The notes below the pieces were generated by a model. It did no database searches and was not told the DNA's origin. It saw only the letters and a program-made list of their open reading frames with translations. Shown one piece after another: positions 3,622-63,646 of a stretch of 64,000 nucleotides of DNA (its first letter is position 1; each line of letters opens with the position of its first letter). Source of the stretch: an uncultured Caldithrix sp. Lineage in GTDB: Bacteria; Electryoneota; AABM5-125-24; Hatepunaeales; Hatepunaeaceae. Position numbers and translations under genes: made by a program. The stretch is from contig CAYHEC010000017.1 of assembly GCA_964355675.1 (NCBI GenBank), positions 4,310-68,309 on the forward strand, written 5' to 3'.

Positions 3622-3628
3622 TCTGAGT

Positions 3629-14456: not shown

Positions 14457-14488
14457 CTTGGAGGGTGGGATTAATCCCGCCCTCCAAG
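14457..14488. repeat. Palindromic element family A (cttGGAGGGYGGGATTAATCCCGCCCTCCaag)
   Basis: Near-perfect 13-bp inverted repeat around an ATTAAT core. Confidence 0.8.
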
Positions 14489-22209: not shown

Positions 22210-22240
22210 CTTGGAGGGCGGGATTAATCCCGCCCTCCAG
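22210..22240. repeat. Palindromic element family A
   Basis: cttggagggcgggattaatcccgccctccag. Confidence 0.8.
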
Positions 22241-22301
22241 AACGATATAATAGATTGGGTGATTATGGGATTGAACACTAAATAGTGCCCGATGAAAACT
22301 C

Positions 22302-28719: not shown

Positions 28720-30107
28720 CAGGCGCAAAAATACTCATCGTAGATGATGAAAAGCTGATACGTTGGGCTTTGGAAAAAGGCCTGAAACAGATCGGTTTTC
28801 AAGTTGAAACTGCCGCAACCGGTGAGGAGGGACTTCAAAAATATGAGTCCTTCCTGCCCGACGCAGTTATTCTCGACAATAAGCTTCCCGGCATACAGGG
28901 TTTGGAGATTCTCAACGAGTTGAAGAGTCGTGACGCCCGGCTGATTATACTCTTTATGACCGCCTTCGGTACTATCGAAACTGCCGTCGAAGCAATGAAG
29001 CGCGGAGCTTATGATTATATCAATAAACCGTTTGTCTTCGAAGAAATTAGGCAACTGCTTGAAAAAGCCCTCTATGTTCAGCGATTGGATACTGAGGTCC
29101 AGACACTCAAGGCAGTGGTTCAGAAGCAGTTCGACACTGAGAATGTTATCTCACTTTCGCCAGCAATGCGCAATATACTGCAAATGGTGGATAAAATCGC
29201 GCGAAGTGAGGCTCCTACAGTATTGCTGACCGGCGAATCGGGAACAGGCAAGGACTTAATGGCGAGAGTCATCCATGAACGAGGTCCCCGCCGTCAACGT
29301 CCATTCGTTACTATCAATTGTTCAGCGCTTCCCGAGTCTCTTCTTGAAAGTGAATTGTTTGGCTACGAGAAAGGCGCCTTTACCGACGCAAAGCAGATGA
29401 AACGCGGTCAATTCGAACTCGCGTCTGGCGGGACGATCTACCTCGACGAAATTGGGGAAATCGCACTCGGACTTCAGGTCAAGCTCCTGCAGGTAATAGA
29501 AAACCGCATGTTCCGCCGGGTCGGAGGCGTTAAGGACATCCTTGTCGATTCTCTGATCATTGCCGCGACCAATATCAATCTGGCAAGCGCTGTCGAAGCC
29601 GGGATGTTCCGCCGCGATCTGTACTATAGACTTAACTTGATTCCAATTGAATTGCCGCCGTTAAAGTCGCGGCGGGAAGACATTGTTCCCATCGCTCTCT
29701 ATTTTGTGCGGAAATTCAACGATGAGTTTCATCGACATTTCAAGGGTATTACTGATGAAGTGAAGAAGATTCTCACCGAATATGATTGGCCTGGAAACAT
29801 TCGTGAATTACGCAACGTGGTCGAGCGAATTGTGATTCTCGAGAATGACGAAATGATCGAAGCCAACCATCTGCCCATCGAGTTGCGCCAATATGCGGAG
29901 GTTTCCTTGGATCAATCCCATTTCCTTTCAACCCAAGAATTGGGCATTGAAATTCCAGTAGAAGGACTCTCAATGGAAGCTGTCGAAAGGGAATTAGTAG
30001 TGAAAGCGCTGAACAAAACTGCCCAAAATCAAACCAAGGCAGCCAAGATGCTCGACATCACGCGAGACTCGCTTCGCTATAAGATGAAAAAGTTCGGGTT
30101 GCTGTAG
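28716..30107 (+). CDS. Sigma-54-dependent response regulator (NtrC family)
   Basis: REC (ILIVDDEK), AAA+ GESGTGKDL, ESELFGYEKGAFTDA, C-terminal Fis-type HTH. Confidence 0.85.
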   Translation: MTGAKILIVDDEKLIRWALEKGLKQIGFQVETAATGEEGLQKYESFLPDAVILDNKLPGIQGLEILNELKSRDARLIILFMTAFGTIETAVEAMKRGAYDYINKPFVFEEIRQLLEKALYVQRLDTEVQTLKAVVQKQFDTENVISLSPAMRNILQMVDKIARSEAPTVLLTGESGTGKDLMARVIHERGPRRQRPFVTINCSALPESLLESELFGYEKGAFTDAKQMKRGQFELASGGTIYLDEIGEIALGLQVKLLQVIENRMFRRVGGVKDILVDSLIIAATNINLASAVEAGMFRRDLYYRLNLIPIELPPLKSRREDIVPIALYFVRKFNDEFHRHFKGITDEVKKILTEYDWPGNIRELRNVVERIVILENDEMIEANHLPIELRQYAEVSLDQSHFLSTQELGIEIPVEGLSMEAVERELVVKALNKTAQNQTKAAKMLDITRDSLRYKMKKFGLL

Positions 30108-30115
30108 AACACCGT

Positions 30116-30355
30116 CTTGGAGGGCGGACTTCTCGCGTAGGATAAGCGTCCCGCTTGTCAAGAGCGGACTAAAAGAGTTCGTTGATTTATTCGTTCGAGT
30201 AGAGATTTGATCCTCTTGGAGGGGGGGCTTCAGCCCCCCCTAAAGGACGATCAAGCACAAACAAGGGCGGGCTGAAGCCCCCCCTCCAAGAGAATCTTGT
30301 CCGAATTGGCGTCTCAAGCGAATAAATCAACGAACTCTAAAAGTCCGCCCTCCAT
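30116..30355. repeat. Composite nested-palindrome element (~240 bp, MITE-like) built on family A ends
   Basis: Outer arms cttggagggcggact / agtccgccctccatg; inner perfect IR aaaagagttcgttgatttattcg / cgaataaatcaacgaactctaaaag; two central G8C/C8 hairpins. Confidence 0.75.
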
Positions 30356-30356
30356 G

Positions 30357-32102: not shown

Positions 32103-32138
32103 GGAAGTGGGAAAGTGCGAAAGTAGGAAAGTGCGAAA

Positions 32139-32165
32139 GTGGGGCGGATTGCAATCCGCCCTACC
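32139..32165. repeat. Family A variant palindrome (ggggcggattgcaatccgcccta)
   Basis: Inverted repeat around a TTGCAA core. Confidence 0.55.
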
Positions 32166-35152: not shown

Positions 35153-37252
35153 GTGAAGGAAGCACACCCCGAAAATATCCGCAATATTGCCTTGATTTCG
35201 CATCAAGGAGCCGGAAAAACAACTCTGACCGAGACCATGCTTCATCGCATGGGCGTCATCACACGTATGGGTTCTATCGAAGAAGGAAACACCCAGAGTG
35301 ACTATCATCATGACGAAATTACTCGAAAAATCTCGATTACTACGACTCTACTCGTCGGATACCATAACGGTATTAAATTGAATATACTTGACACGCCGGG
35401 ATTTACAGACTTTCAAGGTGACGTCATCAGTGCGGTTCGCGCCGCTGATTGTGCCTGTCTGCTGATAAATGCCACGTCAGGTATCGAGGTTGGGACCGAG
35501 TTGGTTTGGGGGATTGCTTCTGAAGTAAAATTACCGAAATTTTTCTTCGTAAATCATCTCGACAAAGAGCATGTCAATTTCGAGAAAATCTTCAATGAGT
35601 TGATCGAAGAATTTAGTGGCGCTGTACTTACTCAATTCCCAGTCAATCCGGGATCAGACGCCTTCAACCAGATCGTCGATTTGATCTCAATGAAGCTGAT
35701 CACTTATAATCCCGACGGGACAGAAAAATCACGCACCGATATTCCAGCGGAACTAAAGTCAAAAGCTGACGAATTACATCTTAAGCTGATTGAGCGATCC
35801 GCCGAAGCTGACGACGCGTTAATGGAGAAGTTCTTCGAGGAAGATACCCTTTCCCACGAGGACATGCTCGCCGGTTTAAGAAAAGGTCTTCGGGAAGGGA
35901 CATTGAATCCGGTTCTCTGCGGATCTGCCAAGAAACAGGTTGGTACCTCACTTCTTCTTGAATTCGTAAATTCTGCGGTCCCTTCACCGGCAGATATACC
36001 GTCATTCAAAGCGACTTTAGAAGGAAGCGAAAAGACGGTTATGCTGTCTTGTAACCCCACCGGCCTGCTGGCGGCATTGGTATTTAAGACTATCTCGGAA
36101 CAGCATGTTGGTGATCTTTCATTTTTTCGGGTTTTTTCCGGCACGATTGCCGCCGCATCGGAAGCCAGGAATTCGAAAAGAGCGTCATCCGAAAAAATCG
36201 GGCAAATTTTTACCGTCTCCTCGAAGACACGCAAATCAGCCGACGAAGTATCGGCCGGAGACATTGGCGCACTGGTAAAACTCCATAATACCCACTCTGG
36301 CGATACATTAACAGCAACCAAAGATGGAGTCATTCTTCCGACCATTCATTATCCTGATCCGGTCACTCGTACAGCGATGGTTCCGCGCCATCGAGGCGAG
36401 GAAGAGAAAATTTCGAACGGGTTGCACATACTCACCGAAGAAGATCCGACGATCAAATTCCATTATGACTCGGAGCTTGCACAACTAATCGTGGAAGCCC
36501 AGGGCGAACTCCATCTGAATAGCATGATCGACAAACTTAAAGACCGATTTGGAGTAGATGTAGATCAAGTTGAACCCCATATACCTTATCGCGAAGCTAT
36601 ACGCGGTCATGCCGAAGGTCAAGGAAAGTACAAAAAACAGTCTGGAGGCCGCGGACAGTTCGGTGACTGCTGGTTAAAGCTTGAGTCCATTCCCCGCGAT
36701 CACGAATTTGAATTCGTTGACGCCATCGTCGGCGGAGTCATTCCGGGCAAGTTTATCCCGGCTATCGAAAAAGGCGTAAAATCCGCGATGGTTGACGGCG
36801 TGATCGCTGGATTTACGGTTGTAGGTGTACGTTGCACGGTTTACGATGGGTCTTACCATACTGTTGACTCCTCAGAAAACTCCTTCAAAATTGCCGCCTC
36901 TATGGGATTTAAGAAAATATTCAAAGAGGCCAAACCGGTTGTTCTGGAACCAATCTACAACCTTGAATTGCGAGTCCCCGAGGAGTTCATGGGTGACGTC
37001 ATGGGGGACATATCTTCAAAACGAGGCAAGATCAGCGGAATGGATCGAGAGGGCAGATTCCAATTGATCAAAGCAAAAATTCCACTGGCCGAGTTGCACA
37101 AATACTCAAGTACGTTACGTTCGCTTACCGGCGGTCGAGGTAATCATCGCCAAAGCTTCTCTCATTATGAAGAAACGCCTGGAGACATTCAACAGAAACT
37201 GATGACCGCCTATGAAGAACGTCGTGCCAAAGGCGGCGCTGAAGAGGAGTAA
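35153..37252 (+). CDS. EF-G-family translational GTPase paralog with degenerate G motifs
   Basis: G1 SHQGAGKTT (canonical AHIDAGKTT), switch II DTPGFTDF (canonical DTPGHVDF), EF-G domains II-V present; 699 aa. Confidence 0.75.
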   Translation: MKEAHPENIRNIALISHQGAGKTTLTETMLHRMGVITRMGSIEEGNTQSDYHHDEITRKISITTTLLVGYHNGIKLNILDTPGFTDFQGDVISAVRAADCACLLINATSGIEVGTELVWGIASEVKLPKFFFVNHLDKEHVNFEKIFNELIEEFSGAVLTQFPVNPGSDAFNQIVDLISMKLITYNPDGTEKSRTDIPAELKSKADELHLKLIERSAEADDALMEKFFEEDTLSHEDMLAGLRKGLREGTLNPVLCGSAKKQVGTSLLLEFVNSAVPSPADIPSFKATLEGSEKTVMLSCNPTGLLAALVFKTISEQHVGDLSFFRVFSGTIAAASEARNSKRASSEKIGQIFTVSSKTRKSADEVSAGDIGALVKLHNTHSGDTLTATKDGVILPTIHYPDPVTRTAMVPRHRGEEEKISNGLHILTEEDPTIKFHYDSELAQLIVEAQGELHLNSMIDKLKDRFGVDVDQVEPHIPYREAIRGHAEGQGKYKKQSGGRGQFGDCWLKLESIPRDHEFEFVDAIVGGVIPGKFIPAIEKGVKSAMVDGVIAGFTVVGVRCTVYDGSYHTVDSSENSFKIAASMGFKKIFKEAKPVVLEPIYNLELRVPEEFMGDVMGDISSKRGKISGMDREGRFQLIKAKIPLAELHKYSSTLRSLTGGRGNHRQSFSHYEETPGDIQQKLMTAYEERRAKGGAEEE

Positions 37253-37253
37253 T

Positions 37254-37760
37254 TTGGAACGAATTTGGGCGCCTTGGAGACTTAAATACATCGAATCGAC
37301 ACTGATACCATCATCTGACTGCTTTCTCTGTGACGCTTCGCTTCAAGAAGTATGCTATGAGACGCTGACAGTCTGGCAAGACGAGACCACGCTCGTTATT
37401 ATGAACAGGTTCCCCTATAATAACGGGCACTTACTCATCGCTCCCAGGAAGCATGTCGGCGACATCTCAGATCTTACCATCTTAGAAGGCTCGGCATTGT
37501 TTGCATCATTGCAACGGGCAACCGGTTGGTTAACCGCGGTATATTCGCCGCATGGTTTCAATATCGGGATGAACCTTGGACGCGTTGCCGGAGCCGGCCT
37601 GCCGGGACATCTCCATATCCATCTCGTGCCAAGGTGGAGCGGAGATGTCAACTTTATGACAGTTGTTGGCGAAGTAAAGGTGATTTCGGAAAGTCTTGAG
37701 GTCGGGTGGGAGCGTATCCGGGCGGTGGTAGTGAAAAATAATGATCCGGTCGGTTCATAA
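37254..37760 (+). CDS. HIT-family nucleotide hydrolase/transferase
   Basis: Histidine triad GHLHIHLVPR; probable TTG start right after the EF-G stop. Confidence 0.65.
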   Translation: MERIWAPWRLKYIESTLIPSSDCFLCDASLQEVCYETLTVWQDETTLVIMNRFPYNNGHLLIAPRKHVGDISDLTILEGSALFASLQRATGWLTAVYSPHGFNIGMNLGRVAGAGLPGHLHIHLVPRWSGDVNFMTVVGEVKVISESLEVGWERIRAVVVKNNDPVGS

Positions 37761-37767
37761 TGTTCTT

Positions 37768-37860
37768 GGAGGGCGGACTTTCAGTCCGCTCTCGTCCGGG
37801 CAGGACAGGTTTCCAAACCTGTCAGAGCGGACTAAAAGTCCGCCCTCCAAGTATCAATTG
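37768..37860. repeat. Composite nested-palindrome element (family A ends, ~93 bp)
   Basis: cttggagggcggact...gacaggtttccaaacctgtc...agagcggactaaaagtccgccctccaag. Confidence 0.75.
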
Positions 37861-39590: not shown

Positions 39591-40127
39591 TTGAATCTTA
39601 AATGGCACGACGATGAGTCAGGTGTAGAATTAGGTCTCCCCGACAAGGATCATTTTCGATTTCAGGACTGTGAAGCCTATAATAAGGTGAAAGGAATGGG
39701 AATCAAGGAGATGGATTTCTGCTGGTGGAATCAAACGAAGGATTCTATCTATTTACTAGAAGCATTAGACACCAAGAAGGATTCATCTCAGGAAATATTA
39801 CTCAAAATTGTTGTAAAGGGTTTGGACAGCTTACTGTTATTGTTAGCTGTTTGGATGGATACAAGGTTCGGTGAAAGTTTGGGTTCGGAATTACCCAAAT
39901 CCTTTCCAACAGCAATTCCAACGAAATTCATATTTATTTTCATTTTACGGACTCGATCAGGCCATGCGGTAAGTTCGGATAAAAAAGGGCAATTTGCACC
40001 TTATCAAGATAAAGCAAGGTCCAGACTCCGTAGTCGATTAGGTCTCTTTTCTGGGAATCCAAGATTAGTAATTGATGATAAAGAATCAATTATAAGAATC
40101 GCTCTTGGTGATGCTGTGATTAGATGA
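39591..40127 (+). CDS. Hypothetical 178-aa protein, partner of the ATPase
   Basis: 5-nt gap after the ATPase gene; same AT-rich composition; no recognisable family. Confidence 0.45.
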   Translation: MNLKWHDDESGVELGLPDKDHFRFQDCEAYNKVKGMGIKEMDFCWWNQTKDSIYLLEALDTKKDSSQEILLKIVVKGLDSLLLLLAVWMDTRFGESLGSELPKSFPTAIPTKFIFIFILRTRSGHAVSSDKKGQFAPYQDKARSRLRSRLGLFSGNPRLVIDDKESIIRIALGDAVIR

Positions 40128-41197
40128 CTAATAAGACACCCGTTCGCGCCCTCGCCCTCCTTTCCGGCGGTCTCGACTCGACTCTTGCCCTTCGCTTGAT
40201 CCACGATCAGGGGATCGAGGTGACAGCCCTGAATTTTCACACCGGATTCTGCTTCACCGACGCACGGCGCGCCACCCGAAAACCCACCCAGTCAGCCACC
40301 GATGGTGATACTCGCGAATCTGGTGGACCATCCGACGCGCTCTCCGCCGCGGCGAAATTAGGCATTCCCATCGAGGTGATCGACATCTCGAAGGGTTACC
40401 TCGAAGTCCTTCACCACCCACAATATGGCTATGGAAAGAACGTCAACCCCTGTGTCGATTGCCGTATTCACATGTTCAAGCAGGCGCGGGAGCTTATGTT
40501 GGAGGTCGGCGCCGAGTTCATTTTCACCGGTGAAGTGCTCGGTCAGCGCCCAAAATCACAACATCTTCAAGCATTACATCTAATTTCCGACCAATCAGGT
40601 CTTTCAGATAGGCTTCTGCGACCGCTTTCGGCTCTACTTTTGCCACCGACACTCCCCGAACGGGAGGGATGGATCGATCGCTCCAAGCTGATGGGCTTTC
40701 ACGGCCGGACGCGCAAACCGCAGATGGCGCTTGCCGCTGAGCTTGGCATCGAGGGTTATCCGCAACCTGCGGGCGGATGTTGTTTTCTCACCGATCCTCA
40801 GTACGGTCGAAAAGTCCGGGATATGTGGGAGCATTCGATTAAGGATGAAATGGAGTGGGAGGATTACCTCATGCTTAAGGTTGGCAGGCACATTCGGTTG
40901 AGCGACGCCGCTAAAGTCGTCGTCGGTCGTGATGAAGGCGAGAATCTGTTTCTCGAACAATTCCCGGGCAATAATATCCGCCTCGAAGTAGCCGATTTTC
41001 CCGGTCCGGTAGCGCTCTTTGTCGGCGAACATTCTGATGATCTTCTCTTTAAGGCGGCAAGAGTAGTCGGAAGGTATTCTGATGGCCGAGACAAGGGAGT
41101 CGATCTAAACGTTTTGGTACAGAACGGAAAAGACTTGAAAAAGATAGTTGTCAGGCCTTTTCAAGCTGAGGAGGTACAGGATTGGGTGATAAGTTAG
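40124..41197 (+). CDS. PP-loop tRNA thiolase, MnmA/ThiI superfamily
   Basis: PP-loop LLSGGLDST; NPCVDCRIHMFK (compare MnmA NPDILCNKEIKFK); TGEVLGQRPKSQ (ThiI-like); CCFLTD; 357 aa. Confidence 0.6.
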   Translation: MTNKTPVRALALLSGGLDSTLALRLIHDQGIEVTALNFHTGFCFTDARRATRKPTQSATDGDTRESGGPSDALSAAAKLGIPIEVIDISKGYLEVLHHPQYGYGKNVNPCVDCRIHMFKQARELMLEVGAEFIFTGEVLGQRPKSQHLQALHLISDQSGLSDRLLRPLSALLLPPTLPEREGWIDRSKLMGFHGRTRKPQMALAAELGIEGYPQPAGGCCFLTDPQYGRKVRDMWEHSIKDEMEWEDYLMLKVGRHIRLSDAAKVVVGRDEGENLFLEQFPGNNIRLEVADFPGPVALFVGEHSDDLLFKAARVVGRYSDGRDKGVDLNVLVQNGKDLKKIVVRPFQAEEVQDWVIS

Positions 41198-41472
41198 GGC
41201 GCTTGAATCGTGATCGAGCGCTATTTGAGCCAAATGCCCGCCGGAAATTGGTGGAGACTCTTTCTCAAGCCAATCCGGAAATTATTGCCAGAGTTATCAT
41301 CAAGGCATTGGAGATGCAAATTCTAACTGAGGATTATAGTCGAGACTGCGGCGTCGATTTTTCCCCTGAAAGTCTGTCCCGCTTCCAGAGAGAGAATTTT
41401 GCAGAAATCGAACAACACCTTGAAAGAGCTATCGGTGGTTTTGTTGGGGGTATCGTCTCGCAAGAGGGTTAA
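41182..41472 (+). CDS. Small hypothetical protein (96 aa)
   Basis: TTG start with upstream GAGGAGG; overlaps the PP-loop gene end; no family. Confidence 0.35.
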   Translation: MGDKLGRLNRDRALFEPNARRKLVETLSQANPEIIARVIIKALEMQILTEDYSRDCGVDFSPESLSRFQRENFAEIEQHLERAIGGFVGGIVSQEG

Positions 41473-41564
41473 TTCCAAGTCTCCGAATACCCGCTACCGC
41501 CCCGCCATAGTCGGCAGAGAAAAAAGCCCACTGCCGACCCGCCGTGGTCGGCAGGAAGCTTAAG

Positions 41565-41660
41565 AGAGCCGCTGTCACACGTCCCGGGTTAATAAAGTGC
41601 TGCTGTCACACGTCCCGGGTTAATAAAGTGTTGCTGTCACACGTCCCGTGTGACAGCCCT
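41565..41660. repeat. Tandem ~31-bp direct repeats (2.6 copies) ending in a palindrome
   Basis: (c)tgctgtcacacgtcccgggttaataaagtg x2, then gctgtcacacgtcccgtgtgacagc. Confidence 0.8.
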
Positions 41661-41700
41661 AATAGCAGGCAGACGAAGGCGTCTGCCTGCAGGCTGATTA

Positions 41701-42282
41701 TTGCAAAAGTTATTATTACATATCTGCTGCGCGCCAGATGCGTCGGTTGCCGTCGAAAGACTGCGCGACCGCTATGATCTGACCGGTTATTTCTATAATC
41801 CCAATATAGAGCCACTTACCGAATATGCTCTTCGGGAAGCAGAGGCTCGACTGCTCTCAGCAGTACTCCATTTCAAGTACCTTGAGACTCAACCACTTCG
41901 TGACGAGTGGTTTGAACTCTGCTCTCCCTTTTCCTCCGAACCCGAACGAGGTGAGCGTTGCCGCGTTTGCATTTCTCACCGTCTTAAAACAACAGCCCAA
42001 TGCGCTGTTGTTCATGGAATTACCCATTTCACAACAACTCTTACTACTTCTCCACATAAAGACGTTGACTTCATCCACGAAACTGGCGAAATTTTGGCAA
42101 ATGAATTCGGACTGATCTATCTTCCCGAGACATTTCGCGCGCGCGATGGATTTCGGCGCAGTCTCGAGCTTTGTCGGGAATACAATTTATACCGCCAGAA
42201 CTACTGCGGATGTCGCTGGAGTCAGAGAAATGGCGAACGTGTACTGCCCAAAGAGTCTGATATCATCGTTCGCAGATCATGA
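41701..42282 (+). CDS. queH: Epoxyqueuosine reductase QueH-like (DUF208)
   Basis: LLLHICCAP...YFYNPNIEP...QNYCGC; TTG start. Confidence 0.65.
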   Translation: MQKLLLHICCAPDASVAVERLRDRYDLTGYFYNPNIEPLTEYALREAEARLLSAVLHFKYLETQPLRDEWFELCSPFSSEPERGERCRVCISHRLKTTAQCAVVHGITHFTTTLTTSPHKDVDFIHETGEILANEFGLIYLPETFRARDGFRRSLELCREYNLYRQNYCGCRWSQRNGERVLPKESDIIVRRS

Positions 42283-43508
42283 ATTCGCTTCCGATCATCC
42301 TCGACGGCAGACCGGAGACATACTCCGATCTAGTTAACAAGGCCATCGCGGGGGCAATGGAAATCACTCGCGCCTGGCGTGAGGGCCGGGGGGATGAGGA
42401 AGCGGTCAACCAGATTGAGTCCGACGCTCGCCAAGCTGTCCGTCGAGCGTTCGATCTGCCGAATGATTGCCGGATTATATTCACTTCTTCAATTGAGGAA
42501 GCTCGGAATAGTGCCATCAAGGGGCTTGCATGGGGAGCCGGAACCAGCAGGAACGGGATAATTACCGTCGAAGGCGATCCAGCGGGGTTTGAGGAGTCGG
42601 CGATCTGGCTGGAGCGGTTTGGCTTCCGTTCGATACGGCTTCCAGTCGGAAAAGCCGGAGGGATACCTTTTCCATTGCTTGACAAGTCGGTCGATGACCG
42701 GACGGCTGTGGTGGCGTTACTCTCCACGACTCCCGAAATGTACCGCTGGCGGATACCTGAGATTCGCAAGCTGATAGCCTCGTGCGAAAGGCATGGGGCT
42801 GAATTAGTTATCGACGTTTCGGTTGAAGTGCAAGTGAAACGAATGGAATACGACTCCTCAAAAATGACACTGCTTTGCGATGGAGTTACTCTTGGCGCGC
42901 CGATTGGCGTGGCGTTTGTGGCGCTGAGACCCGGAGCCCGTTTCGGCCCATTGGTCAGCGGAGGCCTTGAGCAGGACGGTTTGCGAGCTGGAAGACTTAA
43001 CCCAGCGCTGGTTGCGGGACTTGCCGCCGCGGTGATGGAGAACGTTTCTTCTGCCGACCCCCTGCGGTCGGCAGCCAGTGGCGTTTCTTCTGCCACCCCC
43101 CCGTGGGTGGCAGCGAGTGGCGGTTCTTCTGCCACCCCCCCGTGGGTGGCAGCACTTTCCACCCTCCGCCAAACCGCCCTTCGTGAGCTTCGCCGCCGTA
43201 TTCCCTCCGCGAGGCTTGTCCATGGCGAAGCCCCCCTGCCGGTCGGGATCACCTTCGTCGTCCCCGGCGTCGAAGGCGAGGCGGTAGTGATGCTCTGCGC
43301 ACAAGAGAACGTCTTCGTCTCGACGGGATCGACCTGTTCGAAGAAGGCGGGCAAACCCTCGCCGGTACTCCTCGCCGCAGGTTTCACGACCGAGGAGGCT
43401 TCCGGGGCGATAGGGTTGACATTCCGCGCCGGGCAGACGGTTGAAGATGTGAAAATGGCGATGGAAGTTATTGGGAAGGCGGTATTAAAACTGATGGAAA
43501 TAGGATGA
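42279..43508 (+). CDS. Cysteine desulfurase-like (class V aminotransferase fold) paralog lacking the PLP lysine, with in-frame hairpin-repeat insertion
   Basis: C-terminal VSTGSTCS active-Cys loop present, but the SxHK PLP motif is replaced by LLCDGV; two 39-bp tandem palindromic units encode SGVSSATPPWVAA x2. Confidence 0.6.
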   Translation: MNSLPIILDGRPETYSDLVNKAIAGAMEITRAWREGRGDEEAVNQIESDARQAVRRAFDLPNDCRIIFTSSIEEARNSAIKGLAWGAGTSRNGIITVEGDPAGFEESAIWLERFGFRSIRLPVGKAGGIPFPLLDKSVDDRTAVVALLSTTPEMYRWRIPEIRKLIASCERHGAELVIDVSVEVQVKRMEYDSSKMTLLCDGVTLGAPIGVAFVALRPGARFGPLVSGGLEQDGLRAGRLNPALVAGLAAAVMENVSSADPLRSAASGVSSATPPWVAASGGSSATPPWVAALSTLRQTALRELRRRIPSARLVHGEAPLPVGITFVVPGVEGEAVVMLCAQENVFVSTGSTCSKKAGKPSPVLLAAGFTTEEASGAIGLTFRAGQTVEDVKMAMEVIGKAVLKLMEIG

Positions 43509-43525
43509 CTGAAATAGATTTTTCA

Positions 43526-43590
43526 GGCGGGCGTCCTCGTCCGCCGAAGACTAAAGCACGAATTAGACGCAGACGAAGACGTCCGCGTGA
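43526..43590. repeat. Family B element (first hairpin intact, second degenerate)
   Basis: ggcgggcgtcctcgtccgcc ... gacgaagacgtccgcg. Confidence 0.55.
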
Positions 43591-43760
43591 ATTATTCAAA
43601 GAAATCTTGTGGTGACTGAAGCAATCGGTCACTATATACGATCACAAATCGATCACGCCTGAATCCCTTGTCTGTCAGGCTTTCCCGGGCTTCGGTGACT
43701 CAGTGATCGATTTTTGACCCCTCCGTCCTCTCATTAATCATCAATCATTAGTCATTATAA

Positions 43761-45029
43761 ATGATCTACTTCGACAATAACGACACTACGCCTCTCCACC
43801 CTGAGGCACTCGCGGCGATGATGCCCTACTTCACCGACAAATTCGGCAACCCCTCATCACTGCACACACTCGGTCTTGAAGCTGAGACCGCTCTCGACGA
43901 GGCGCGCGAGACCATTGCCTCCGCAATCAGCGCTTCGCCCAAAGAGATTGTCTTCACATCCGGCGCGACCGAAGCTAACAACCTTGCCATCCTCGGCGCG
44001 GCTCGCGCTCGCCCTGACCGCAAGCACCTCATCATCTCTGCCGTCGAGCACGCCTCTGTCCTGCAGATCGCCAAACGGCTCGAAGGCGAGGGCATCCGCG
44101 TTACGAAGTTGCCCGTCGATGGGCAGGGGTTCGTTTCGTCAGACACACTCCGCGATGCGCTTGACGACGACACCTTCCTCGTCAGTATAATTTACGCCAA
44201 TCACGAGATTGGCACGATTCAGGACTTAAAAACCCTCGCGGCGATTGCTCACGAAAAGGGAGCCTGGGTCCACACCGACGCCGCGCAAGCGCTTGGCAAG
44301 ATCCCTTGCGACGTGAAGGAGCTTGGCGTTGACCTTGCTTCGTTCAATGGGCACAAACTGCACGGGCCTAAAGGAGTCGGAGCGCTATACTTCAGTCGCA
44401 AATGCCGCCCGAAACGGCTGATGGAAGGCGCGGCTCAGGAGAACGACCTCCGCCCGGGGACTGAGAACGTCCCGGCGATTATAGGATTTGCCAAGGCCGC
44501 TGAAATCGCCGTTCGGGACAGGGAAGAAGTGACCAATCACGTCAATCGGCTGGTGAAACGGCTGGCAGATGGACTTTCGGAGTTGCCACACACGCGTCTT
44601 AATGGGCCACCGCCGGGGACACCCCCCGACACCTTGGAGGGCGGACTTCAGTCCGCCCCACTGCATGTTCCTCAAATGACTCGTCTTCCCGGTAATCTCA
44701 ATGTCACCTACCTTTACATCGAGGGCGAAGCAATACTAATGCACCTCTCTAACCGTGAGATAGCCGTCTCTTCGGGGAGCGCCTGCTCGTCGAAGTCGCT
44801 CGTGCCGTCATCAGTGTTGACGTCCATCGGCTTGATCCATGAGGAAGCTCATGGCGCGATACGGTATTCCCTCTCAAGGTTCAATACGATAGAAGAAGTC
44901 GAGACGGTCATCGTGAAATCTCGTGAGGTGGTGGAACTGCTTAGAGCGATGACGGCATTCGTGCCAGAGCTTCACTCTGAGCGTGAGGGGGGGGAAGGCT
45001 TCTATCGCAGTCGCGATAAAACGACTTGA
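43761..45029 (+). CDS. nifS: Cysteine desulfurase (NifS/IscS family) with an in-frame family A palindrome insertion
   Basis: SFNGHKLHGPKGVGALY (PLP Lys) and SSGSACSS (active Cys); insertion at 44633-44660 encodes DTLEGGLQSAPL. Confidence 0.8.
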   Translation: MIYFDNNDTTPLHPEALAAMMPYFTDKFGNPSSLHTLGLEAETALDEARETIASAISASPKEIVFTSGATEANNLAILGAARARPDRKHLIISAVEHASVLQIAKRLEGEGIRVTKLPVDGQGFVSSDTLRDALDDDTFLVSIIYANHEIGTIQDLKTLAAIAHEKGAWVHTDAAQALGKIPCDVKELGVDLASFNGHKLHGPKGVGALYFSRKCRPKRLMEGAAQENDLRPGTENVPAIIGFAKAAEIAVRDREEVTNHVNRLVKRLADGLSELPHTRLNGPPPGTPPDTLEGGLQSAPLHVPQMTRLPGNLNVTYLYIEGEAILMHLSNREIAVSSGSACSSKSLVPSSVLTSIGLIHEEAHGAIRYSLSRFNTIEEVETVIVKSREVVELLRAMTAFVPELHSEREGGEGFYRSRDKTT

Positions 45030-45096
45030 AATTTCGATTAGTTTTTTGTAAATTAATATTAACATTCGAAAGTGCTGAACATTACCGGAGACAATA

Positions 45097-47067
45097 ATGA
45101 ATTTTTACTGGAGTTCTCGGTTCCATTTTGCAGTACTGATCGTGTCGTCGAATCTCGGCGCCGCTCTACTGCAGGATGGCCATGCAACAATCCCTGCCAA
45201 TCTTCCGGAACACCCCTTTATTAGAGAGCTCAGACCGGTCAATTGCCAAGGATCGAGCCTTCCTTCCCAGAGCCTGATCCGGACTAACCCTGCCCGTCTT
45301 CCTGCCAGAGATGATTCCGATGAAGATATTTCCTACTGCAACGAAGAGGATATCGAATATCTATGGACTCTTCCCGATGCATTTGGCGACCATAGTTATT
45401 TCGAACGATTCACGCCAGCGGAAGCTCCTTTTCGCCTCATCGGCTTAAGAATCGTCCTGCATAATTTATTCGGTAATGCGGGGCATCCTGACATGCGCGT
45501 TTCTATTGCTACCAGTGACCGCAATCTGCCTGATGATGAGATCGAATCATTTGTAGTGCCAACCGAGGACCTCGTCTTAAGTCCGAATGGAGATTGGTTT
45601 TGGAATGAATATCTTTTCGACGAATATGGTGTCGGTGCGATAAGGTTTGAGGAAGCGGTGGATTTCCATCTGATTATCAACATTGCACCTAATAATGACG
45701 AAGACACTCTCGCTCTCGTCACCGATGATGGTCGCCGTCGTATCGACAGGAGCGGCCTTTTCGATGGGATGGACTCAACGTATGTGCTATTCAGAAATCT
45801 TCAGGGCGTTCGTATTTCGGTGAATTTTGCGCTGGTCGCCATCGTAGAGTACGGAGACGCTCCGGTAAGACAGGTGATTTCACTCCGGGAAGGCTGGAAC
45901 ACAATCTCGCTCAATGTTTCTCCTACTGCCATCGACTGGATAGAAGATTTAGGTCCCGACCCAAGAGGTATGATACAGCAATTCCGTATCGATGATGAAC
46001 ACCACCATGTGATTATGTTGAAGGACAGATTCGGGCAATTTTGCTCTCCTCAAGACGATGTGTGGGACATTCCGTATTGGAATTTATCAGACGGTTACCA
46101 GATCAAGGTCGATGAACCCCTCCGGGGTTCGTGGACTGGAACAGCCATAGATCCACAAAGTCCGCTTCCGCTTGCCCCGGGATGGAACATGGTTCCTTAT
46201 TACCCTGAATACGAGCTATCCGCGGCTTCGCCGGAATTTGAGGTTGTGAGTTCTATTCTCGACCAACTAATCGTTGTTAAAGACGATGCTGGAAACTTCA
46301 TGCTCCCTTCGCTGAACTTTTCTAACATGGCTGATTGGCAGCCGGGGAAGGGCTACCAGATCAAAGTTGACGCCGATTGCGATCTTACCTATCCAGGCGA
46401 CGAGGGCCGGACAAATTCCCCAAGATCTGCTGACGCCCCCAAGCCAATTCATTGGTCATTAGAAGCCCCGAGTTCTGACAATATGTTGCTTTTGATAAAC
46501 TCATTCGGGGAGTCACTATTCGTGGACGGTGATGAGATTGGCGCATTTGACTCACAGGGGAGTCTCGTTGGATCTGGCGTTATTGTTGAGGGGAGGTGCG
46601 GGCTTGCTTTATGGGGCGAAGATCCATCAGGAACCGTTAAGGATGGACTTACAGTAGGCGAAGAGCCATCATTCAGGCTTTGGCGCTCAGAGAGGTCGGA
46701 AGAATCTTCACTGCTGATAAAAGATTCGCAACATGGTAAGCCTATCCGGTATGCTCGCAATGATGTTGTTGTTGGTAGCGCTGTCATCGTCGAAGCACTT
46801 CCTGAGAGGTCATCGCTTACTTCTGTTCATCCAAATCCGTTCAACAGTTTTACCCTTATTGAATATTTACTTGCCGAGTCTGGCATTGTTACTATTGTTC
46901 TCTGCGATACGCAAGGGAGAATTGTCGCCCAAATATTCGAGGGGAACAGAGAAGCTGGCAGATACATGGAAAGAGTCGATGGCGGTGAGCTTGCGGCAGG
47001 TCTCTATTTCCTTAGGATGAATGCGGGAAAATATTTAAGTATGACGAGGATTGTATTGTTGAAATGA
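45097..47067 (+). CDS. Large secreted hypothetical protein with T9SS C-terminal sorting domain
   Basis: C-terminus VHPNPFNSFTLIEYLL...GLYFLRMNAGKYLSMTRIVLLK; 656 aa. Confidence 0.65.
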   Translation: MNFYWSSRFHFAVLIVSSNLGAALLQDGHATIPANLPEHPFIRELRPVNCQGSSLPSQSLIRTNPARLPARDDSDEDISYCNEEDIEYLWTLPDAFGDHSYFERFTPAEAPFRLIGLRIVLHNLFGNAGHPDMRVSIATSDRNLPDDEIESFVVPTEDLVLSPNGDWFWNEYLFDEYGVGAIRFEEAVDFHLIINIAPNNDEDTLALVTDDGRRRIDRSGLFDGMDSTYVLFRNLQGVRISVNFALVAIVEYGDAPVRQVISLREGWNTISLNVSPTAIDWIEDLGPDPRGMIQQFRIDDEHHHVIMLKDRFGQFCSPQDDVWDIPYWNLSDGYQIKVDEPLRGSWTGTAIDPQSPLPLAPGWNMVPYYPEYELSAASPEFEVVSSILDQLIVVKDDAGNFMLPSLNFSNMADWQPGKGYQIKVDADCDLTYPGDEGRTNSPRSADAPKPIHWSLEAPSSDNMLLLINSFGESLFVDGDEIGAFDSQGSLVGSGVIVEGRCGLALWGEDPSGTVKDGLTVGEEPSFRLWRSERSEESSLLIKDSQHGKPIRYARNDVVVGSAVIVEALPERSSLTSVHPNPFNSFTLIEYLLAESGIVTIVLCDTQGRIVAQIFEGNREAGRYMERVDGGELAAGLYFLRMNAGKYLSMTRIVLLK

Positions 47068-47111: not shown

Positions 47112-47160
47112 AGACCAAGCTGTCATTTCTGCCGGAATGACAGCTTGGTCTTGATTTTAA
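47112..47160 (+). terminator. Rho-independent terminator
   Basis: gagaccaagctgtcatttctgccggaatgacagcttggtcttgatttt. Confidence 0.75.
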
Positions 47161-50708: not shown

Positions 50709-50752
50709 CGGGAAGAATCAAACTGTCAACCACCTGATGCAAAAGATATTGA

Positions 50753-50800
50753 AACAGAAAGAAGTCAGCCATCACGGCTGACTTCTTTCTGTTTTGAATT
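50753..50800. terminator. Bidirectional terminator between convergent genes
   Basis: cagaaagaagtcagccatcacggctgacttctttctg followed by ttttg. Confidence 0.75.
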
Positions 50801-53913: not shown

Positions 53914-54730
53914 GTTAATTAGCAATAGTATATTGACAGATCATCAACAAATAGAACCGGATACAAAACTCATCCTCATCACCAATGATGACGGCATCAA
54001 CGCCCCCGGAATATGGGCGCTTGCTGAGGCTGTGAGAGATCTTGGCGAAGTCTGGATAGTTGCTCCTGATCGTGAAAGGTCGGGAGTAAGCAATGCGTTT
54101 ACCCTGATGACGCCCTTGCGCTATTTCCACCAGCCACGAAACGGATTTGAGAATGTCTATGCCGTGACTGGGACGCCAGTTGACGCGGCAAAATTTGCTC
54201 TGCATGGATTGATGCCTAAAATGCCGGATCTGGTTTTTTCAGGGATTAATCGTGGCGAGAATACCGGTATTAATCTGCTCTATTCCGGGACGGTCGCCGG
54301 CGCAATGGAGGGAGCAATCATTGGGATTCCTTCCATCGCCGTTTCTATTGTCTGGCCAAAGCATTCTGACAAAAGTACTGAGTATTCCCTTGCTTCAAGC
54401 TTTGCGCGGCGTTTGGCGGAAAGAGTATTGGAGGAGGGGCTTCCCTTTGGGACAATGTTGAACGTCAATGTTCCGAATATTCCTGAAAGCGATCTGAAGG
54501 GAATACTGATAACGCCCCAAGCTGAATCTCATTACGAGGAGATCATCGATAAACGAAGCGATCCCCGTGGTAACGAGTACTTCTGGATCAGTGGAGTCAA
54601 CAAATTAATCGATGAGAATGCCGATAGCGATATGAAGGCAGTTCGTGAGAAATATATCGCCGTGACGCCAGTCTGCGCGCGACTAACCAATGAAGGATTT
54701 TTAAAAGAACTGAAAGGTTGGAACCTTTGA
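53897..54730 (+). CDS. surE: 5'/3'-nucleotidase SurE
   Basis: ILITNDDGINAPGI...APDRERSG; exact start uncertain (overlaps the fabZ end). Confidence 0.8.
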   Translation: MTGKDRLISNSILTDHQQIEPDTKLILITNDDGINAPGIWALAEAVRDLGEVWIVAPDRERSGVSNAFTLMTPLRYFHQPRNGFENVYAVTGTPVDAAKFALHGLMPKMPDLVFSGINRGENTGINLLYSGTVAGAMEGAIIGIPSIAVSIVWPKHSDKSTEYSLASSFARRLAERVLEEGLPFGTMLNVNVPNIPESDLKGILITPQAESHYEEIIDKRSDPRGNEYFWISGVNKLIDENADSDMKAVREKYIAVTPVCARLTNEGFLKELKGWNL

Positions 54731-56268
54731 GTAGCCGTGAGACCATACTGATCCTTGATTTTGGATCACAATATACCCAACTCATTGCCAGGCGCTGTCG
54801 GGAAGAAGGGGTCTTCAGTCGTATCGAGTCGTGGGATTGGGCGCTTGAAGAGATCAAGAACCTGAAGCCTGTAGGGATAATCCTTTCGGGAGGCCCCAAC
54901 AGTGTCTATGAAGAAGGATCGCCGGTCAGGTGGGATGATCTTATCGGGCTCGGCATCCCGATTCTCGGTATCTGCTATGGCCTGCAGGTGATGATGTTGC
55001 GGGAAGGAGGGGTCATCGAAGCGGCTCACAAGCGGGAATATGGTCGCGCCCGAATCACCATACATTCTCAATCACGTTTGTTTCAGGGCGTCGAAGCGCT
55101 TCAACCGGTCTGGATGAGTCATGGCGATCATACCACAAAACTTGCCGACGGTTGGGTTCAGCTCGCCACCAGCGATTCCGGGATTATTGCCGCGGTCGAA
55201 GACGCCAAAAGGAACTTCTATGGAGTTCAATTCCACCCTGAGGTCAGCCACACTCCTGCGGGTGATAAAATTCTCCGCAACTTTCTCTACGATATCTGTC
55301 AAGCCAAAGGCGGATGGAGTATGCGCTCCTACAGTGATGAGGCAACCGACCAGATCGCTCGCAGTATCGGTTCCAATGGCGTTATTTGCGCCTTATCCGG
55401 AGGAGTTGATTCTTCGGTAGCCGCAACTCTGGTGCATAAGGTCGCCGGAGATCGCTTGCGCTGTGTTTTTGTCAATAACGGCGTTCTACGCAAGAATGAA
55501 GCCGCTGAAGTGGAGTCGATTTTCAAGCCCCGTTTCAACGACTCATTGATCACGATTGACGCCTCCGACGACTTTTTCGCCGATCTTGCTGGAATAACTG
55601 ATCCTGAGCTGAAACGGAAGACGATCGGCGGAAGATTCATCCAGGTGTTTGAGAAAGAGGCAAAACAATTTGCAGATGCTAAATTCCTCGTTCAAGGCAC
55701 TATTTACCCCGACGTAGTTGAATCTTCCTCTTCAAAAGGTCCGGCAAAAATCATAAAAACTCATCATAATGTTGGGGGTCTGCCTGAGAAGCTGGGGTTG
55801 AAACTGGTCGAGCCGTTGCGTGACCTTTTCAAGGATGAGGTGCGCCAGCTTGGGCGCGAATTGGGCTTGCCAGAGTCTATGCTGATGCGGCATCCTTTCC
55901 CGGGGCCCGGGCTTGCCGTGCGTATTCTTGGCGAGGTTACTCGCGAGTCAGTTCACATACTACAACAGGCAGACGCAATTTTTATCGAAGAGCTTCGAGA
56001 AGCGGACTGGTATTCAAAGGTTTCGCAGGCATTCGCTGTACTTTTACCGATCAAGGCGGTCGGGGTAATGGGCGATAATCGAACCTACGAACAGGTCATT
56101 GCGCTCAGATCCGTCGATACTCGCGATTTCATGACCGCAGACTTCTCGCCTTTGCCACACGAACTTCTTGCCAGAGTAGCTTCGCGGATTGCCAACACGG
56201 TGCGGGGCGTCAACCGCGTCGTCTATGACGTGACGTCGAAACCGCCCGCCACGGTGGAGTGGGAGTAA
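54718..56268 (+). CDS. guaA: GMP synthase (glutamine-hydrolysing)
   Basis: GATase ILILDFGSQYTQLIARR, PP-loop SGGVDSSV, C-terminal dimerisation domain. Confidence 0.9.
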   Translation: MEPLSSRETILILDFGSQYTQLIARRCREEGVFSRIESWDWALEEIKNLKPVGIILSGGPNSVYEEGSPVRWDDLIGLGIPILGICYGLQVMMLREGGVIEAAHKREYGRARITIHSQSRLFQGVEALQPVWMSHGDHTTKLADGWVQLATSDSGIIAAVEDAKRNFYGVQFHPEVSHTPAGDKILRNFLYDICQAKGGWSMRSYSDEATDQIARSIGSNGVICALSGGVDSSVAATLVHKVAGDRLRCVFVNNGVLRKNEAAEVESIFKPRFNDSLITIDASDDFFADLAGITDPELKRKTIGGRFIQVFEKEAKQFADAKFLVQGTIYPDVVESSSSKGPAKIIKTHHNVGGLPEKLGLKLVEPLRDLFKDEVRQLGRELGLPESMLMRHPFPGPGLAVRILGEVTRESVHILQQADAIFIEELREADWYSKVSQAFAVLLPIKAVGVMGDNRTYEQVIALRSVDTRDFMTADFSPLPHELLARVASRIANTVRGVNRVVYDVTSKPPATVEWE

Positions 56269-56289
56269 TTTTGAAAAGAGGCAAAGGTT

Positions 56290-56406
56290 TTCAGCAGGGT
56301 GAGGACACCCTGCCGCATCACGAAAGACAACCTGTTGCAGGGTGTCTTCACCATGCAAAAATTCCAATCAATCGACTGGTTGCAGGGTGTCTTCACCCTG
56401 CAACAG
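56290..56406. repeat. Array of three related palindromes (GCAGGGTG-N-CACCCTGC)
   Basis: cagggtgaggacaccctg; ttgcagggtgtcttcaccatgcaa; ttgcagggtgtcttcaccctgcaa. Confidence 0.75.
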
Positions 56407-56420
56407 TTGCAATTCTAATT

Positions 56421-59210: not shown

Positions 59211-60336
<1,126 letters not shown>

Positions 60337-61756: not shown

Positions 61757-61786
61757 CTTGGCGGGCGGGTTAAAGCCCCCTCCATG
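61757..61786. repeat. Family A palindrome (variant)
   Basis: cttggcgggcgggttaaagccccctccatg. Confidence 0.6.
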
Positions 61787-63614: not shown

Positions 63615-63646
63615 CTTGGAGGGCGGGATTAATCCCGCCCTCCATG
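63615..63646. repeat. Family A palindrome
   Basis: cttggagggcgggattaatcccgccctccatg. Confidence 0.8.

Follow-up and report, generated by a model that had tools for sequence, protein, structure and literature searches.

Probable in-frame entry of dispersed REP-like palindromes into two neighbouring genes of the cysteine-desulfurase type

The window, our term for the whole 64,000-nucleotide stretch of DNA that was analysed, carries two neighbouring, paralogous genes of the cysteine-desulfurase type, each with a palindromic segment inside its reading frame (Table 1). Gene 2 has the Schiff-base HK motif and the Cys loop SSGSACSS, with H198, K199 and C342 invariant in alignment A1, and it matches Pfam Aminotran_5 at 1e-78 and solved desulfurases in the PDB at E=4e-96. 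From the letters alone it had been called a canonical nifS, a label that suits the HK and Cys-loop motifs but not the NCBIfam scores, which reach 445.5 bits for the NifS equivalog TIGR03402 (cut-off 530.75) and 367-371 bits for IscS (cut-offs 643 and 548).

Gene 1 matches Pfam Aminotran_5 over residues 42-229 only (E=1.4e-12), and its NCBIfam NifS score of 120 bits falls far under the cut-off. The Cys loop STGSTCS is retained, and the PLP-binding Schiff-base Lys is missing, the HK column reading VT in the gene 1 protein (P0121) and VA, AA, SA, SV or EA in six orthologs. The AF2 model (mean pLDDT 90.4) is predicted to adopt the desulfurase fold despite the missing Lys, and the best Foldseek matches are IscS/Nfs1, the first being A. 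fulgidus IscS. Because the PLP Lys is replaced, gene 1 falls outside the canonical desulfurases; the initial view of both genes as desulfurases fits gene 2, which has the class I motifs, but has to be qualified for gene 1.

Table 1. Genes, inserts and repeat elements located in the window.
Feature	Position	Strand	Basis or remark
Family A element, 32 nt	14457..14488	.	39 nt downstream of stop, minus-strand gene 14528-15913
Family A element CTTGGAGGGCGGGATTAATCCCGCCCTCCAG	22210..22241	.	Repeat scans
Family A composite, ~241 nt, ends CTTGGAGGGCGGAC... / ...GTCCGCCCTCCATG, two family A hairpins inside	30116..30356	.	8 nt past stop of ORF 28716-30107
Family A composite, 87 nt, inverted CTTGGAGGGCGGAC ends	37765..37851	.	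4 nt past stop of ORF 37212-37760
Family B intergenic copy CTGCCGACC-CGCCGT-GGTCGGCAG	41531..41554	.	Upstream of queH, outside genes
Gene 1, class-V aminotransferase/cysteine-desulfurase-like, divergent, 409 aa	42279..43508	+	ORF; hosts family B array
In-frame array of three 39-bp units, head to tail, each of 13 codons	43043..43159	+	TRF, repeat search, alignment A2
Unit 1 palindrome CTGCCGACC-CCCTGC-GGTCGGCAG	43051..43074	.	Canonical family B stem, sub-family B1
Unit 2 palindrome CTGCCACCC-CCCCGT-GGGTGGCAG	43090..43113	.	Perfect-hairpin scan
Unit 3 palindrome CTGCCACCC-CCCCGT-GGGTGGCAG, same as unit 2	43129..43152	.	Perfect-hairpin scan
Gene 2, NifS/IscS-like class I cysteine desulfurase, 422 aa	43761..45029	+	ORF, Pfam, PDB; hosts family A insert
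Lineage-specific insert, 60 nt (20 codons), G286-Q305 GTPPDTLEGGLQSAPLHVPQ	44616..44675	+	Alignment A1
Family A palindrome core CTTGGAGGGCGGAC-TTCA-GTCCGCCC, inside insert	44633..44658	.	Repeat scans
Family A element, imperfect	61757..61786	.	8 nt past stop of ORF 60300-61748
Family A element	63615..63646	.	5 nt past stop of ORF 62638-63609

The three consecutive in-frame hairpin units that the sequence-only reading had described in gene 1 were recovered by Tandem Repeats Finder (period 39 bp, 2.8 copies, 43043-43153, score 139), by the repeat search, which places 39-nt copies in register at 43043, 43082 and 43121, and by the hairpin scan. Every unit holds a perfect palindrome with a 9-bp stem and a loop of 6 nt, not the 4 nt first given. 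The stem of unit 1 is the same as that of the intergenic copy at 41531 and of copies in other genomes, while unit 2 differs from unit 1 at two stem positions, each compensated on the opposite arm, and the identity of unit 3 with unit 2 is consistent with a recent tandem duplication. The array, at about residues V256-L293, encodes VSSADPLRSAASG / VSSATPPWVAASG / GSSATPPWVAALS and adds 28-31 residues beyond the repeat-free orthologs (alignment A2); one peptide had been thought to be encoded twice identically, but its second copy, SGGSSATPPWVAA, differs from the first. The window holds 4 occurrences of the array's generic palindrome pattern, where shuffles give an expectation of 0.00, and the predicted RNA fold of the array reaches -61 kcal/mol (z = -5.1).

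In gene 2, a family A palindrome in frame, with the full sequence CTTGGAGGGCGGACTTCAGTCCGCCC, was found as initially reported. Its match to family A covers the left arm and, on the right arm, the inner 8 bp, the outer right arm being degenerate; the nearest match is the left end of the composite at 37765, with which it shares 24/25 nt (one indel). The perfect-hairpin scan resolves 44639-44658 into a 9-bp stem with a 2-nt loop, and the RNA fold predicts 8 pairs with a 4-nt loop (-19.7 kcal/mol, z -3.1). Relative to the nearest insert-free orthologs the protein gains 20 residues, where 12 had been counted. The left edge of the insert shows a weak GGGCCACCGCCG/GGGACACCCCCC similarity that is not common to the orthologs.

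Both segments belong to families dispersed elsewhere. Family A is a palindrome family of the form CTTGGAGGGCGG...CCGCCC, with a 32-nt unit that starts CTTGGAGG, and it occupies 9 loci in the 64 kb, 8 of them besides the gene 2 copy. Six of these eight extragenic loci lie at most 40 nt downstream of a stop codon. Half-sites with no more than one mismatch number 13 against 0.27 expected, and the exact left-arm 12-mer of the gene 2 copy recurs at other intergenic sites. A role of the family A hairpins as canonical intrinsic terminators was considered and rejected because no T-run stands behind them. In 34 kb of contigs of the closest relatives the family A 11-mer has no exact match, and one of the relatives that share the gene 2 insert (L006) has a GGGCGGGATTAATCCCGCCC variant ~80 nt upstream of its nifS.

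Family B, CTGCCGACC-N6-GGTCGGCAG, has a 24-nt core, or 31-39 nt including its flanks, which are CCA/TGG in sub-family B0 and TCTT/CA in B1. Among the 87 genome matches listed, at least 11 fall in CAMBDS01, a Calditrichota-labelled MAG, and at least 5 in VGIO01, a Calditrichaeota MAG in which most copies sit outside long ORFs; nearly all of the remaining matches listed are singletons in unrelated genomes. Variants with co-varying stems occur in two relatives (L003, L102). Sub-family B1, TCTT-CTGCCGACC-CCCTGY-GGTCGGCAG-CA, was found in five unrelated contexts, and the array's unit sub-family is also present in non-coding-looking contexts (L010, L095). Other copies lie in frame within genes: in three T9SS paralogs, directly before Por_Secre_tail; in an FG-GAP protein, as an inverted doublet; and within the sorting domain of a 607-aa protein. 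The frame is the same in all in-frame copies (A-D-x-x-x-S-A), perhaps because the peptide is under selection. A metagenome-wide scan for the coding-type family B unit returned three contigs only.

Alignment of orthologs, proposed at the outset as the way to establish lineage specificity, did so for gene 2, in which the insert is confined to P0001-P0004 (83-85% identity) and missing in all 35 other aligned homologs (35/35). P0001-P0004 form a clade, sister to the insert-free P0005-P0008, and the gene 2 insert is old, the product of one event in the ancestor of this four-member clade, and now decaying in the manner of ordinary coding sequence under weak constraint. In DNA alignment A3, the right arm is perfect in the window only, and L003 has a 12-nt deletion in the core; fold z-scores across the four insert carriers are -3.1, -2.9, -0.1 and -0.4, the hairpin having been lost in two of the three insert-sharing relatives (L006, L003). 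Between the window and the remaining relative (L007), the palindrome core is kept at 25/28, better than the insert flanks, which could hint at some constraint.

For gene 1, the alignment shows the array missing from P0122-P0125 and from every canonical desulfurase aligned. However, P0127, an ortholog of 46% identity, has two near-identical units where the window has the array, whereas closer orthologs do not. The units of the window and P0127 are identical at 31/33 nt, against ~46% for the flanking gene DNA (N-terminal two-thirds). Sharing of the extra segments by unrelated orthologs had been named in advance as the sign of an ancestral rather than repeat-derived origin; one distant ortholog does share units of the array, a partial instance of that sign, but the repeat origin stands, because the units so far exceed their flanks in identity and B1 also occurs in unrelated contexts, which argues against ordinary ancestral coding sequence. 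That these units, with homologous spacers, recur at an identical codon position in so divergent an ortholog would have to be explained by targeted re-insertion, by homogenisation over a long time or by selection. Gene 1 was also considered as a mosaic whose C-terminal part came from a P0127-like donor; the domain-wise identity matrices do not support this, since P0121 is closest to P0122 in both parts. With all its palindromes perfect and units 2 and 3 identical, the array is young or homogenised, and it probably grew by slipped-strand tandem duplication.

In the AF2 models, both inserts are predicted as low-confidence loops in otherwise confident desulfurase folds, and the structure mapping that had been suggested thus places each in low-pLDDT coil between confident elements. 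In gene 1, the low-confidence loop spans residues 259-287, between helices 242-258 and 288-307; in gene 2, strands 278-280 and 313-317 flank the insert, which is modelled as coil and has pLDDT <50 at 295-304.

A search for a RAYT/IS200-like transposase by tblastn, with an approximate E. coli YafM query against 837 kb of genome fragments, gave no match below E=0.2. Target-site duplications were not evident at any copy of either family, and no conserved GTAG or CGTC end tag was found on family A or B, the L025 copy alone ending ...CAGTAG. An Rfam scan of 40000-46000 (E<=1) returned two sub-threshold chance matches, none on the repeats. An assembly artefact was rejected because identical proteins are encoded on three independently assembled contigs.

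We consider it likely that dispersed REP-like palindromes entered both genes in frame and have been tolerated there as loops; the orthologs, the AF2 models and the extragenic copies agree with the sequence-only reading on this invasion of coding sequence by repeat families. Two short GC-rich REP-like palindrome families would populate this FCB-group (Calditrichota/Electryoneota-like) genome, mainly just 3' of genes; a family A copy would have entered the NifS-like gene, and family B copies the adjacent desulfurase-like gene. Both frames stayed open because the inserts are stop-free in the frame used and have lengths that are multiples of three (60 nt; 3 x 39 nt). The added 20 and roughly 30 residues would form flexible loops on the surface, close to where the large PLP domain meets the small C-terminal one; the enzyme fold would be undisturbed, and the inserts would persist as passengers. 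We infer that they are functionally neutral, and they may have been inserted by a RAYT/IS200-like enzyme that transposes single-strand hairpins, or through conversion from copies elsewhere.

The agreement in array site, frame and spacers between the window and L001 could instead mean that the array is ancient, present in the ancestor of P0121 and P0127, kept as a useful peptide or DNA/RNA hairpin (e.g. a flexible inter-domain linker) and lost in P0122-P0125. Such retention would suit the compensatory stem changes that preserve the palindromes of units 2 and 3, as well as the single frame shared by in-frame family B copies, three of which are linkers before T9SS sorting domains; besides, P0126 has a possible degenerate unit at the array site, with 16/23 nt aligned. 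Nevertheless, we regard it as unlikely. The contrast between units and N-terminal DNA is unlike inherited coding sequence, four orthologs of intermediate distance have no array, the unit sub-family is found in non-coding-looking contexts, and the array region is predicted to be disordered. Moreover, candidate decayed relics in P0122, P0123 and P0126 did not score above codon-shuffled controls. A related proposal, which we think doubtful, is that the family B unit homes in on a single codon position of this Lys-less gene, or keeps being renewed there, across lineages of 46% identity, with one preferred frame throughout Calditrichota-like genomes, (S/T)-A-D-P-x-x-S-A-A, that includes the T9SS linkers; the unit would then be a REP exapted as a portable, self-propagating flexible linker, or a case of site-specific single-strand insertion keyed to a TTCTT-like flank.

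The hairpins might also be selected regulatory structures in mRNA or DNA, acting in interdomain ribosome pausing, as internal attenuators or as RNase barriers. Their strong predicted folds would agree with this, as would the position of both inserts about two-thirds along the paralogous genes, near a domain boundary, and that of the intergenic family A copies just past stop codons, where mRNA 3'-end elements would be expected. Yet the decay of the gene 2 hairpin in two of three insert-sharing relatives speaks against selection for an RNA structure in that gene and disfavours, for gene 2, the regulatory alternative raised initially; the insert is missing altogether from most orthologs of both genes, no Rfam family matches, and the family A hairpins have no T-run after them, making this account quite improbable. 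It is more remote still that the segments were born within the genes through slippage or through template switching at quasi-palindromes, their likeness to intergenic copies being coincidental or reversed in direction. Local tandem duplication is clear for units 2 and 3, and quasi-palindrome correction, an established mutational mechanism, could yield perfect stems without selection. However, an exact 12-mer and palindrome fit a family with far more half-sites than expected, the identical family B stem recurs at many unrelated loci and genomes, and both segments are insertions relative to orthologs, so that an in situ origin is largely refuted.

If dispersed palindromes did enter both genes, families A and B would most plausibly work like REPIN/RAYT-BIME systems. 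REPINs and BIMEs are REP doublets mobilised by REP-associated tyrosine transposases (RAYT), and the families described here resemble them in their dispersed palindromes, conserved stems, orientation-defining loops and inverted doublet (in L048). The 87- and 241-nt family A composites, with inverted terminal CTTGGAGGGCGGAC ends, recall bacterial MITEs (Correia/NEMIS, ERIC, QMITE), for which in-frame intragenic copies are known; in contrast, the in-gene copies are far shorter, have no terminal-repeat-plus-core layout and no target-site duplication seen, and are GC-rich rather than AT-rich. PARCELs are likewise tandem intragenic repeats with DNA dyad symmetry and apparent mobility, but they are 25-residue amphipathic domains that build whole surface-protein ORFs, whereas here units of 12-13 residues interrupt an enzyme fold and most copies lie outside genes.

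In-frame insertions of REPs and RPEs are already documented (PMC10969869, PMC3733652). The intragenic REPs tagged with GTAG or CGTC (Di Nocera et al. 2013) are GC-rich palindromes of 20-40 nt that lie mainly just 3' of ORFs, a minority having entered genes of known function in frame, frequently as dimers or clusters that encode 20-80 residues, and in recB of two Xanthomonas species REPs are reported at about the same site (PMC3733652). Families A and B are similar in being short GC-rich palindromes 3' of ORFs, some of them in frame; they differ in having no 5' GTAG/CGTC tag, in sequence family and phylum, and in that no RAYT was found in the genome fragments, and in the gene 1 cluster three units follow one another head to tail in direct orientation at a constant 39-nt period, not as inverted dimers. 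Rickettsia palindromic elements (RPEs; Ogata et al. 2000, as summarised in PMC10969869) are selfish palindromes found in frame in unrelated housekeeping genes whose proteins survive with the added peptide. Genes 1 and 2 resemble RPE hosts in the in-frame palindrome insertion into functional-type protein genes, but RPEs are ~100-150 bp long and belong to Rickettsia, while the units here are 24-39 nt and the insert 60 nt, in a free-living FCB-group lineage and with no sequence relation. In Caldithrix abyssi, of the nearest cultivated phylum, an intergenic REP-like 18-nt palindrome, aAACCGTTgaAACGGTTt, prefers positions downstream of genes and is found in no genuine coding sequences (PMC5317091); the downstream preference is the same as here, and the sequence is unrelated to families A and B.

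Selfish palindromes in working genes have so far been known as Rickettsia RPEs and, in Proteobacteria and Verrucomicrobia, as intragenic REPs; the two genes would extend this range to an FCB-group lineage that has received little study and to REP-type units of very small size. They also set side by side a dated case, the gene 2 insert with four stages of decay, and a fresh one, the gene 1 array. Given complete genomes, the array site shared with the distant ortholog could help to decide whether conversion or re-insertion renews REP copies. The inserts account for the 20-30 residues by which the proteins exceed their orthologs in length and for the splitting of profile alignments in two; the PDB phmmer alignments of gene 2 are interrupted at residues 276-306.

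Both adjoining desulfurase-type genes of the window, here called gene 1 and gene 2, carry in-frame palindromic inserts, as the sequence-only reading had proposed and as tandem-repeat, hairpin and fold analyses confirmed. In gene 1, Tandem Repeats Finder identified a 39-bp period at 43043-43153 (2.8 copies), which a repeat search resolved into three 39-nt units in register, each with a perfect 9-bp stem and a 6-nt loop. Read directly, two stem positions separate unit 1 from units 2 and 3, and both are compensated in the opposite arm. Four matches to the generic stem-loop pattern lie in the window, where 0.00 were expected, and the array RNA folds at -61 kcal/mol (z = -5.1), while the gene 2 palindrome folds at -19.7 kcal/mol.

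Positions of the host genes, palindromes and other hairpins in the window
Feature	Position	Strand	Details
Gene 1	42279-43508	+	409 aa; start overlaps queH stop
Gene 2	43761-45029	+	422 aa; 252-nt spacer after gene 1
Unit 1 palindrome	43051		CTGCCGACC-CCCTGC-GGTCGGCAG
Unit 2 and unit 3 palindromes	43090 and 43129		CTGCCACCC-CCCCGT-GGGTGGCAG
Gene 2 palindrome	44633-44658		CTTGGAGGGCGGAC-TTCA-GTCCGCCC
Fourth window copy of family B palindrome	41531-41554		intergenic, upstream of queH
Eight further family A loci	14457, 22210, 24514 (variant), 30116-30356, 32142 (variant), 37765-37851, 61757, 63615		
Third hairpin family	58254-58273, 58296-58315, 22313-22334, 41665-41690, 43527-43546		all intergenic
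Long perfect hairpins	20641-20680, 47112-47151, 50752-50794		intergenic; 17-, 16-, 19-bp stems

Judged by its sequence, gene 2 qualifies as a genuine class I cysteine desulfurase, with a Pfam Aminotran_5 match of 1e-78, an HK motif and SSGSACSS loop invariant across 39 aligned homologs, and a phmmer match to solved desulfurases at E = 4e-96; its 445 bits do not reach the NCBI NifS equivalog cut-off of 531. Gene 1, which had also been called a desulfurase, fits that name only loosely and is a divergent paralog: its Aminotran_5 match is just 1.4e-12, the NifS model gives 120 bits, and the Schiff-base lysine column holds Thr, Ala or Val in gene 1 and all six orthologs, with the Cys loop retained. 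Yet its confident AlphaFold model (pLDDT 90.4) superposes best on IscS/Nfs1 structures, the first being the Lys-less A. fulgidus IscS. Across the gene 1 family (gene 1 and orthologs P0122-P0127; L099, L102, L101, L001), the HK column reads VT/VA/AA/SA/SV/EA, the PLP lysine being absent throughout, and the order EF-G, HIT, PP-loop ATPase with an NFACT-R_2 domain, 96-aa protein, QueH and gene 1 is kept. This family may serve tRNA modification as a sulfur-relay partner without catalytic activity of its own.

The inserts belong to two dispersed palindrome families, A in gene 2 and B in gene 1. The family A left-arm 12-mer CTTGGAGGGCGG has 13 half-sites in the window (at most one mismatch) against 0.27 expected. 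Six of the eight further loci follow a stop codon by no more than 40 nt, four of these at 4-8 nt, and the lack of a T-run after the hairpins makes them REP-like rather than canonical terminators. Two composite elements (87 and 241 nt) have inverted CTTGGAGGGCGGAC ends, and 24 of 25 nt of the gene 2 copy agree with the left end of the shorter one. These composites have nested hairpins and a MITE-like look; a stretch within them, TTCTCGCGTAGG(A/T)TAA(G/C)CGTC(C/T)CG(C/G)TTG(T/A)CAAG, recurs beside a family B copy in the Calditrichota-labelled MAG CAMBDS01 (L010). Tandem 8-mers AAGTGCGA/AAGTAGGA (32105-32141) directly adjoin a palindrome, and closely similar GAAGTAGG/GAAAGTGA runs adjoin family B palindromes in CAMBDS01 (L021 ~5995-6027, L071 ~5715-5745).

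Scanning 185,579 species genomes for the family B pattern CTGCCGACC-N6-GGTCGGCAG returned at least 87 matching stretches; among the matches listed, 11 come from CAMBDS01 and 5 from the Calditrichaeota MAG VGIO01, the others being nearly all singletons from unrelated genomes. Unbiased contigs of relatives (L003, L102) contain the co-varying stem variants CTGCCAACC, CTGTCAACC and CAGCCGACC around a conserved CGCCGY/RCGGCG loop. Sub-family B1 (TCTT-CTGCCGACC-CCCTGY-GGTCGGCAG-CA) turned up in five unrelated settings, namely gene 1, its L001 ortholog, L010, L095 and L097. Additionally, three CAMBDS01 paralogs (746-797 aa; L017/L032/L039) read family B as (S/T)ADPPRSAA directly before Por_Secre_tail, a 971-aa FG-GAP protein (L048 5850-5911) contains an in-frame inverted doublet, and a 607-aa protein of L097 (1403-1470) has a B1 copy and a second hairpin within its Por_Secre_tail sorting domain. 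All in-frame family B copies use one reading frame, A-D-x-x-x-S-A, which, over some 4-5 independent events, is suggestive only.

Ortholog alignment bore out the proposed lineage specificity for gene 2. The 20-residue segment G286-Q305 is restricted to P0001-P0004 (83-85% identity) in a 39-sequence alignment, and a neighbour-joining tree excluding the insert columns unites these four as a clade, with the insert-free P0005-P0008 as its sister group, so that a single event in their ancestor would be most parsimonious. For gene 1 the outcome was mixed. Neither P0122-P0125 (47-65% identity) nor any aligned canonical desulfurase has the array, but the ortholog P0127 (46% identity) has two units at the same site with a 36-nt period (TSADPLWSAAC / GASADPLWSAA) and a homologous inter-unit spacer. 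Its unit DNA is identical to window unit 1 at 31 of 33 positions, against ~46% DNA identity between the two genes over their N-terminal two-thirds, so the units are repeat-derived; the shared site would reflect either repeated insertion or one old insert homogenised by conversion. Domain-wise identity comparison did not support a mosaic gene 1 as source of the common array, and candidate array relics in P0126 and P0122 were not significant against shuffled controls.

In the AlphaFold models, both inserts fall in low-confidence loops, as predicted, and leave the Lys and Cys motifs untouched. The gene 2 insert (model mean pLDDT 84.5) is modelled as coil, flanked by strands 278-280 and 313-317, and its pLDDT drops below 50 at 295-304. 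Matches of phmmer with solved desulfurases break exactly at the insert, query residues 276-306 standing opposite ~11 chain residues. In the gene 1 model, helices 242-258 and 288-307 flank the array, which loops out with low confidence at residues 259-287 and interrupts a long inter-domain helix that is unbroken in the gene 2 model (237-273). Families, orthologs and models thus support repeat palindromes invading coding sequence and tolerated as loops.

The alternative first offered, a regulatory mRNA structure, fits the window's gene 2 hairpin less well once the insert DNA of three further insert-bearing orthologs is aligned with it. The left arm TGGAGGGCGG is retained, and the right arm is perfect in the window alone. 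L007, despite two mismatches, folds via an outer GUGGAG/CUCCAC stem, the L006 palindrome is degenerate, and in L003 a 12-nt part of the core is deleted. Fold z-scores weaken from -3.1 (window) and -2.9 (L007) to -0.1 (L006) and -0.4 (L003), and Rfam families gave no match over the repeat region. This uneven retention argues for a decaying relic rather than a conserved RNA element. In L006, the closest relative, a family A-type palindrome AAGGGCGGGATTAATCCCGCCCTT lies ~80 nt upstream of the nifS start (2613-2636), and the in-gene copy GGCGGGATACAATCAGCCC is nearer this GGGAT variant than the window's GGAC variant, which might point to conversion linking the in-gene copy with those nearby.

In-frame palindromic elements are known from Rickettsia, as its RPEs (PMC10969869), and GTAG/CGTC REPs of several phyla also lie in frame, their dimers or clusters encoding 20-82 residues, with REPs at the same site of recB in two Xanthomonas species (PMC3733652). 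For Caldithrix abyssi, the genome paper describes a REP-like palindrome of unrelated sequence that is absent from genuine genes (PMC5317091). By analogy, the window inserts would work like intragenic REPs. RAYT-mobilised REPs carry a GTAG or CGTC tag, whereas families A and B have neither, and tblastn with an approximate E. coli YafM query matched no RAYT gene in 837 kb of genome fragments, so membership of that class is not established. With in-frame inserts already known elsewhere, the only features that could yet prove more than this are the recurrence at one site in gene 1 and the bias in reading frame.

Other repeats accompany these families. Upstream of queH, an intergenic 31-bp tandem repeat (41571-41690; 2.5 copies, 97% identical) ends in an 11-bp-stem hairpin (41633-41657), followed by another; the sole Rfam match there was a sub-threshold Mg-II riboswitch (25 vs 40 bits). 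The latter hairpin belongs to a third family, GGC(G/A)GACG-NNNN-CGTC(C/T)GCC, with CCCT/AGGG/AAGG loops in either orientation and one copy just downstream of gene 1; containing CGTC, it may be a CGTC-type REP. Two hairpins with a common GCAGGGTG stem and opposite loop orientation (56294-56313 and 56379-56404, 85 nt apart) stand where ORFs 54718-56268 and 56259-58172 meet; they are either a further in-frame pair or precede a true start located later. A degenerate GGC/GGT-rich tandem repeat (4548-4722; periods 9, 21, 24 and 27) inside ORF 3554-4819 presumably encodes a low-complexity tract rich in Gly. Among the long perfect hairpins, the core of the 17-bp-stem one (20641-20680), CTGTCAACC-CTCTGT-GGTTGACAG, resembles family B.
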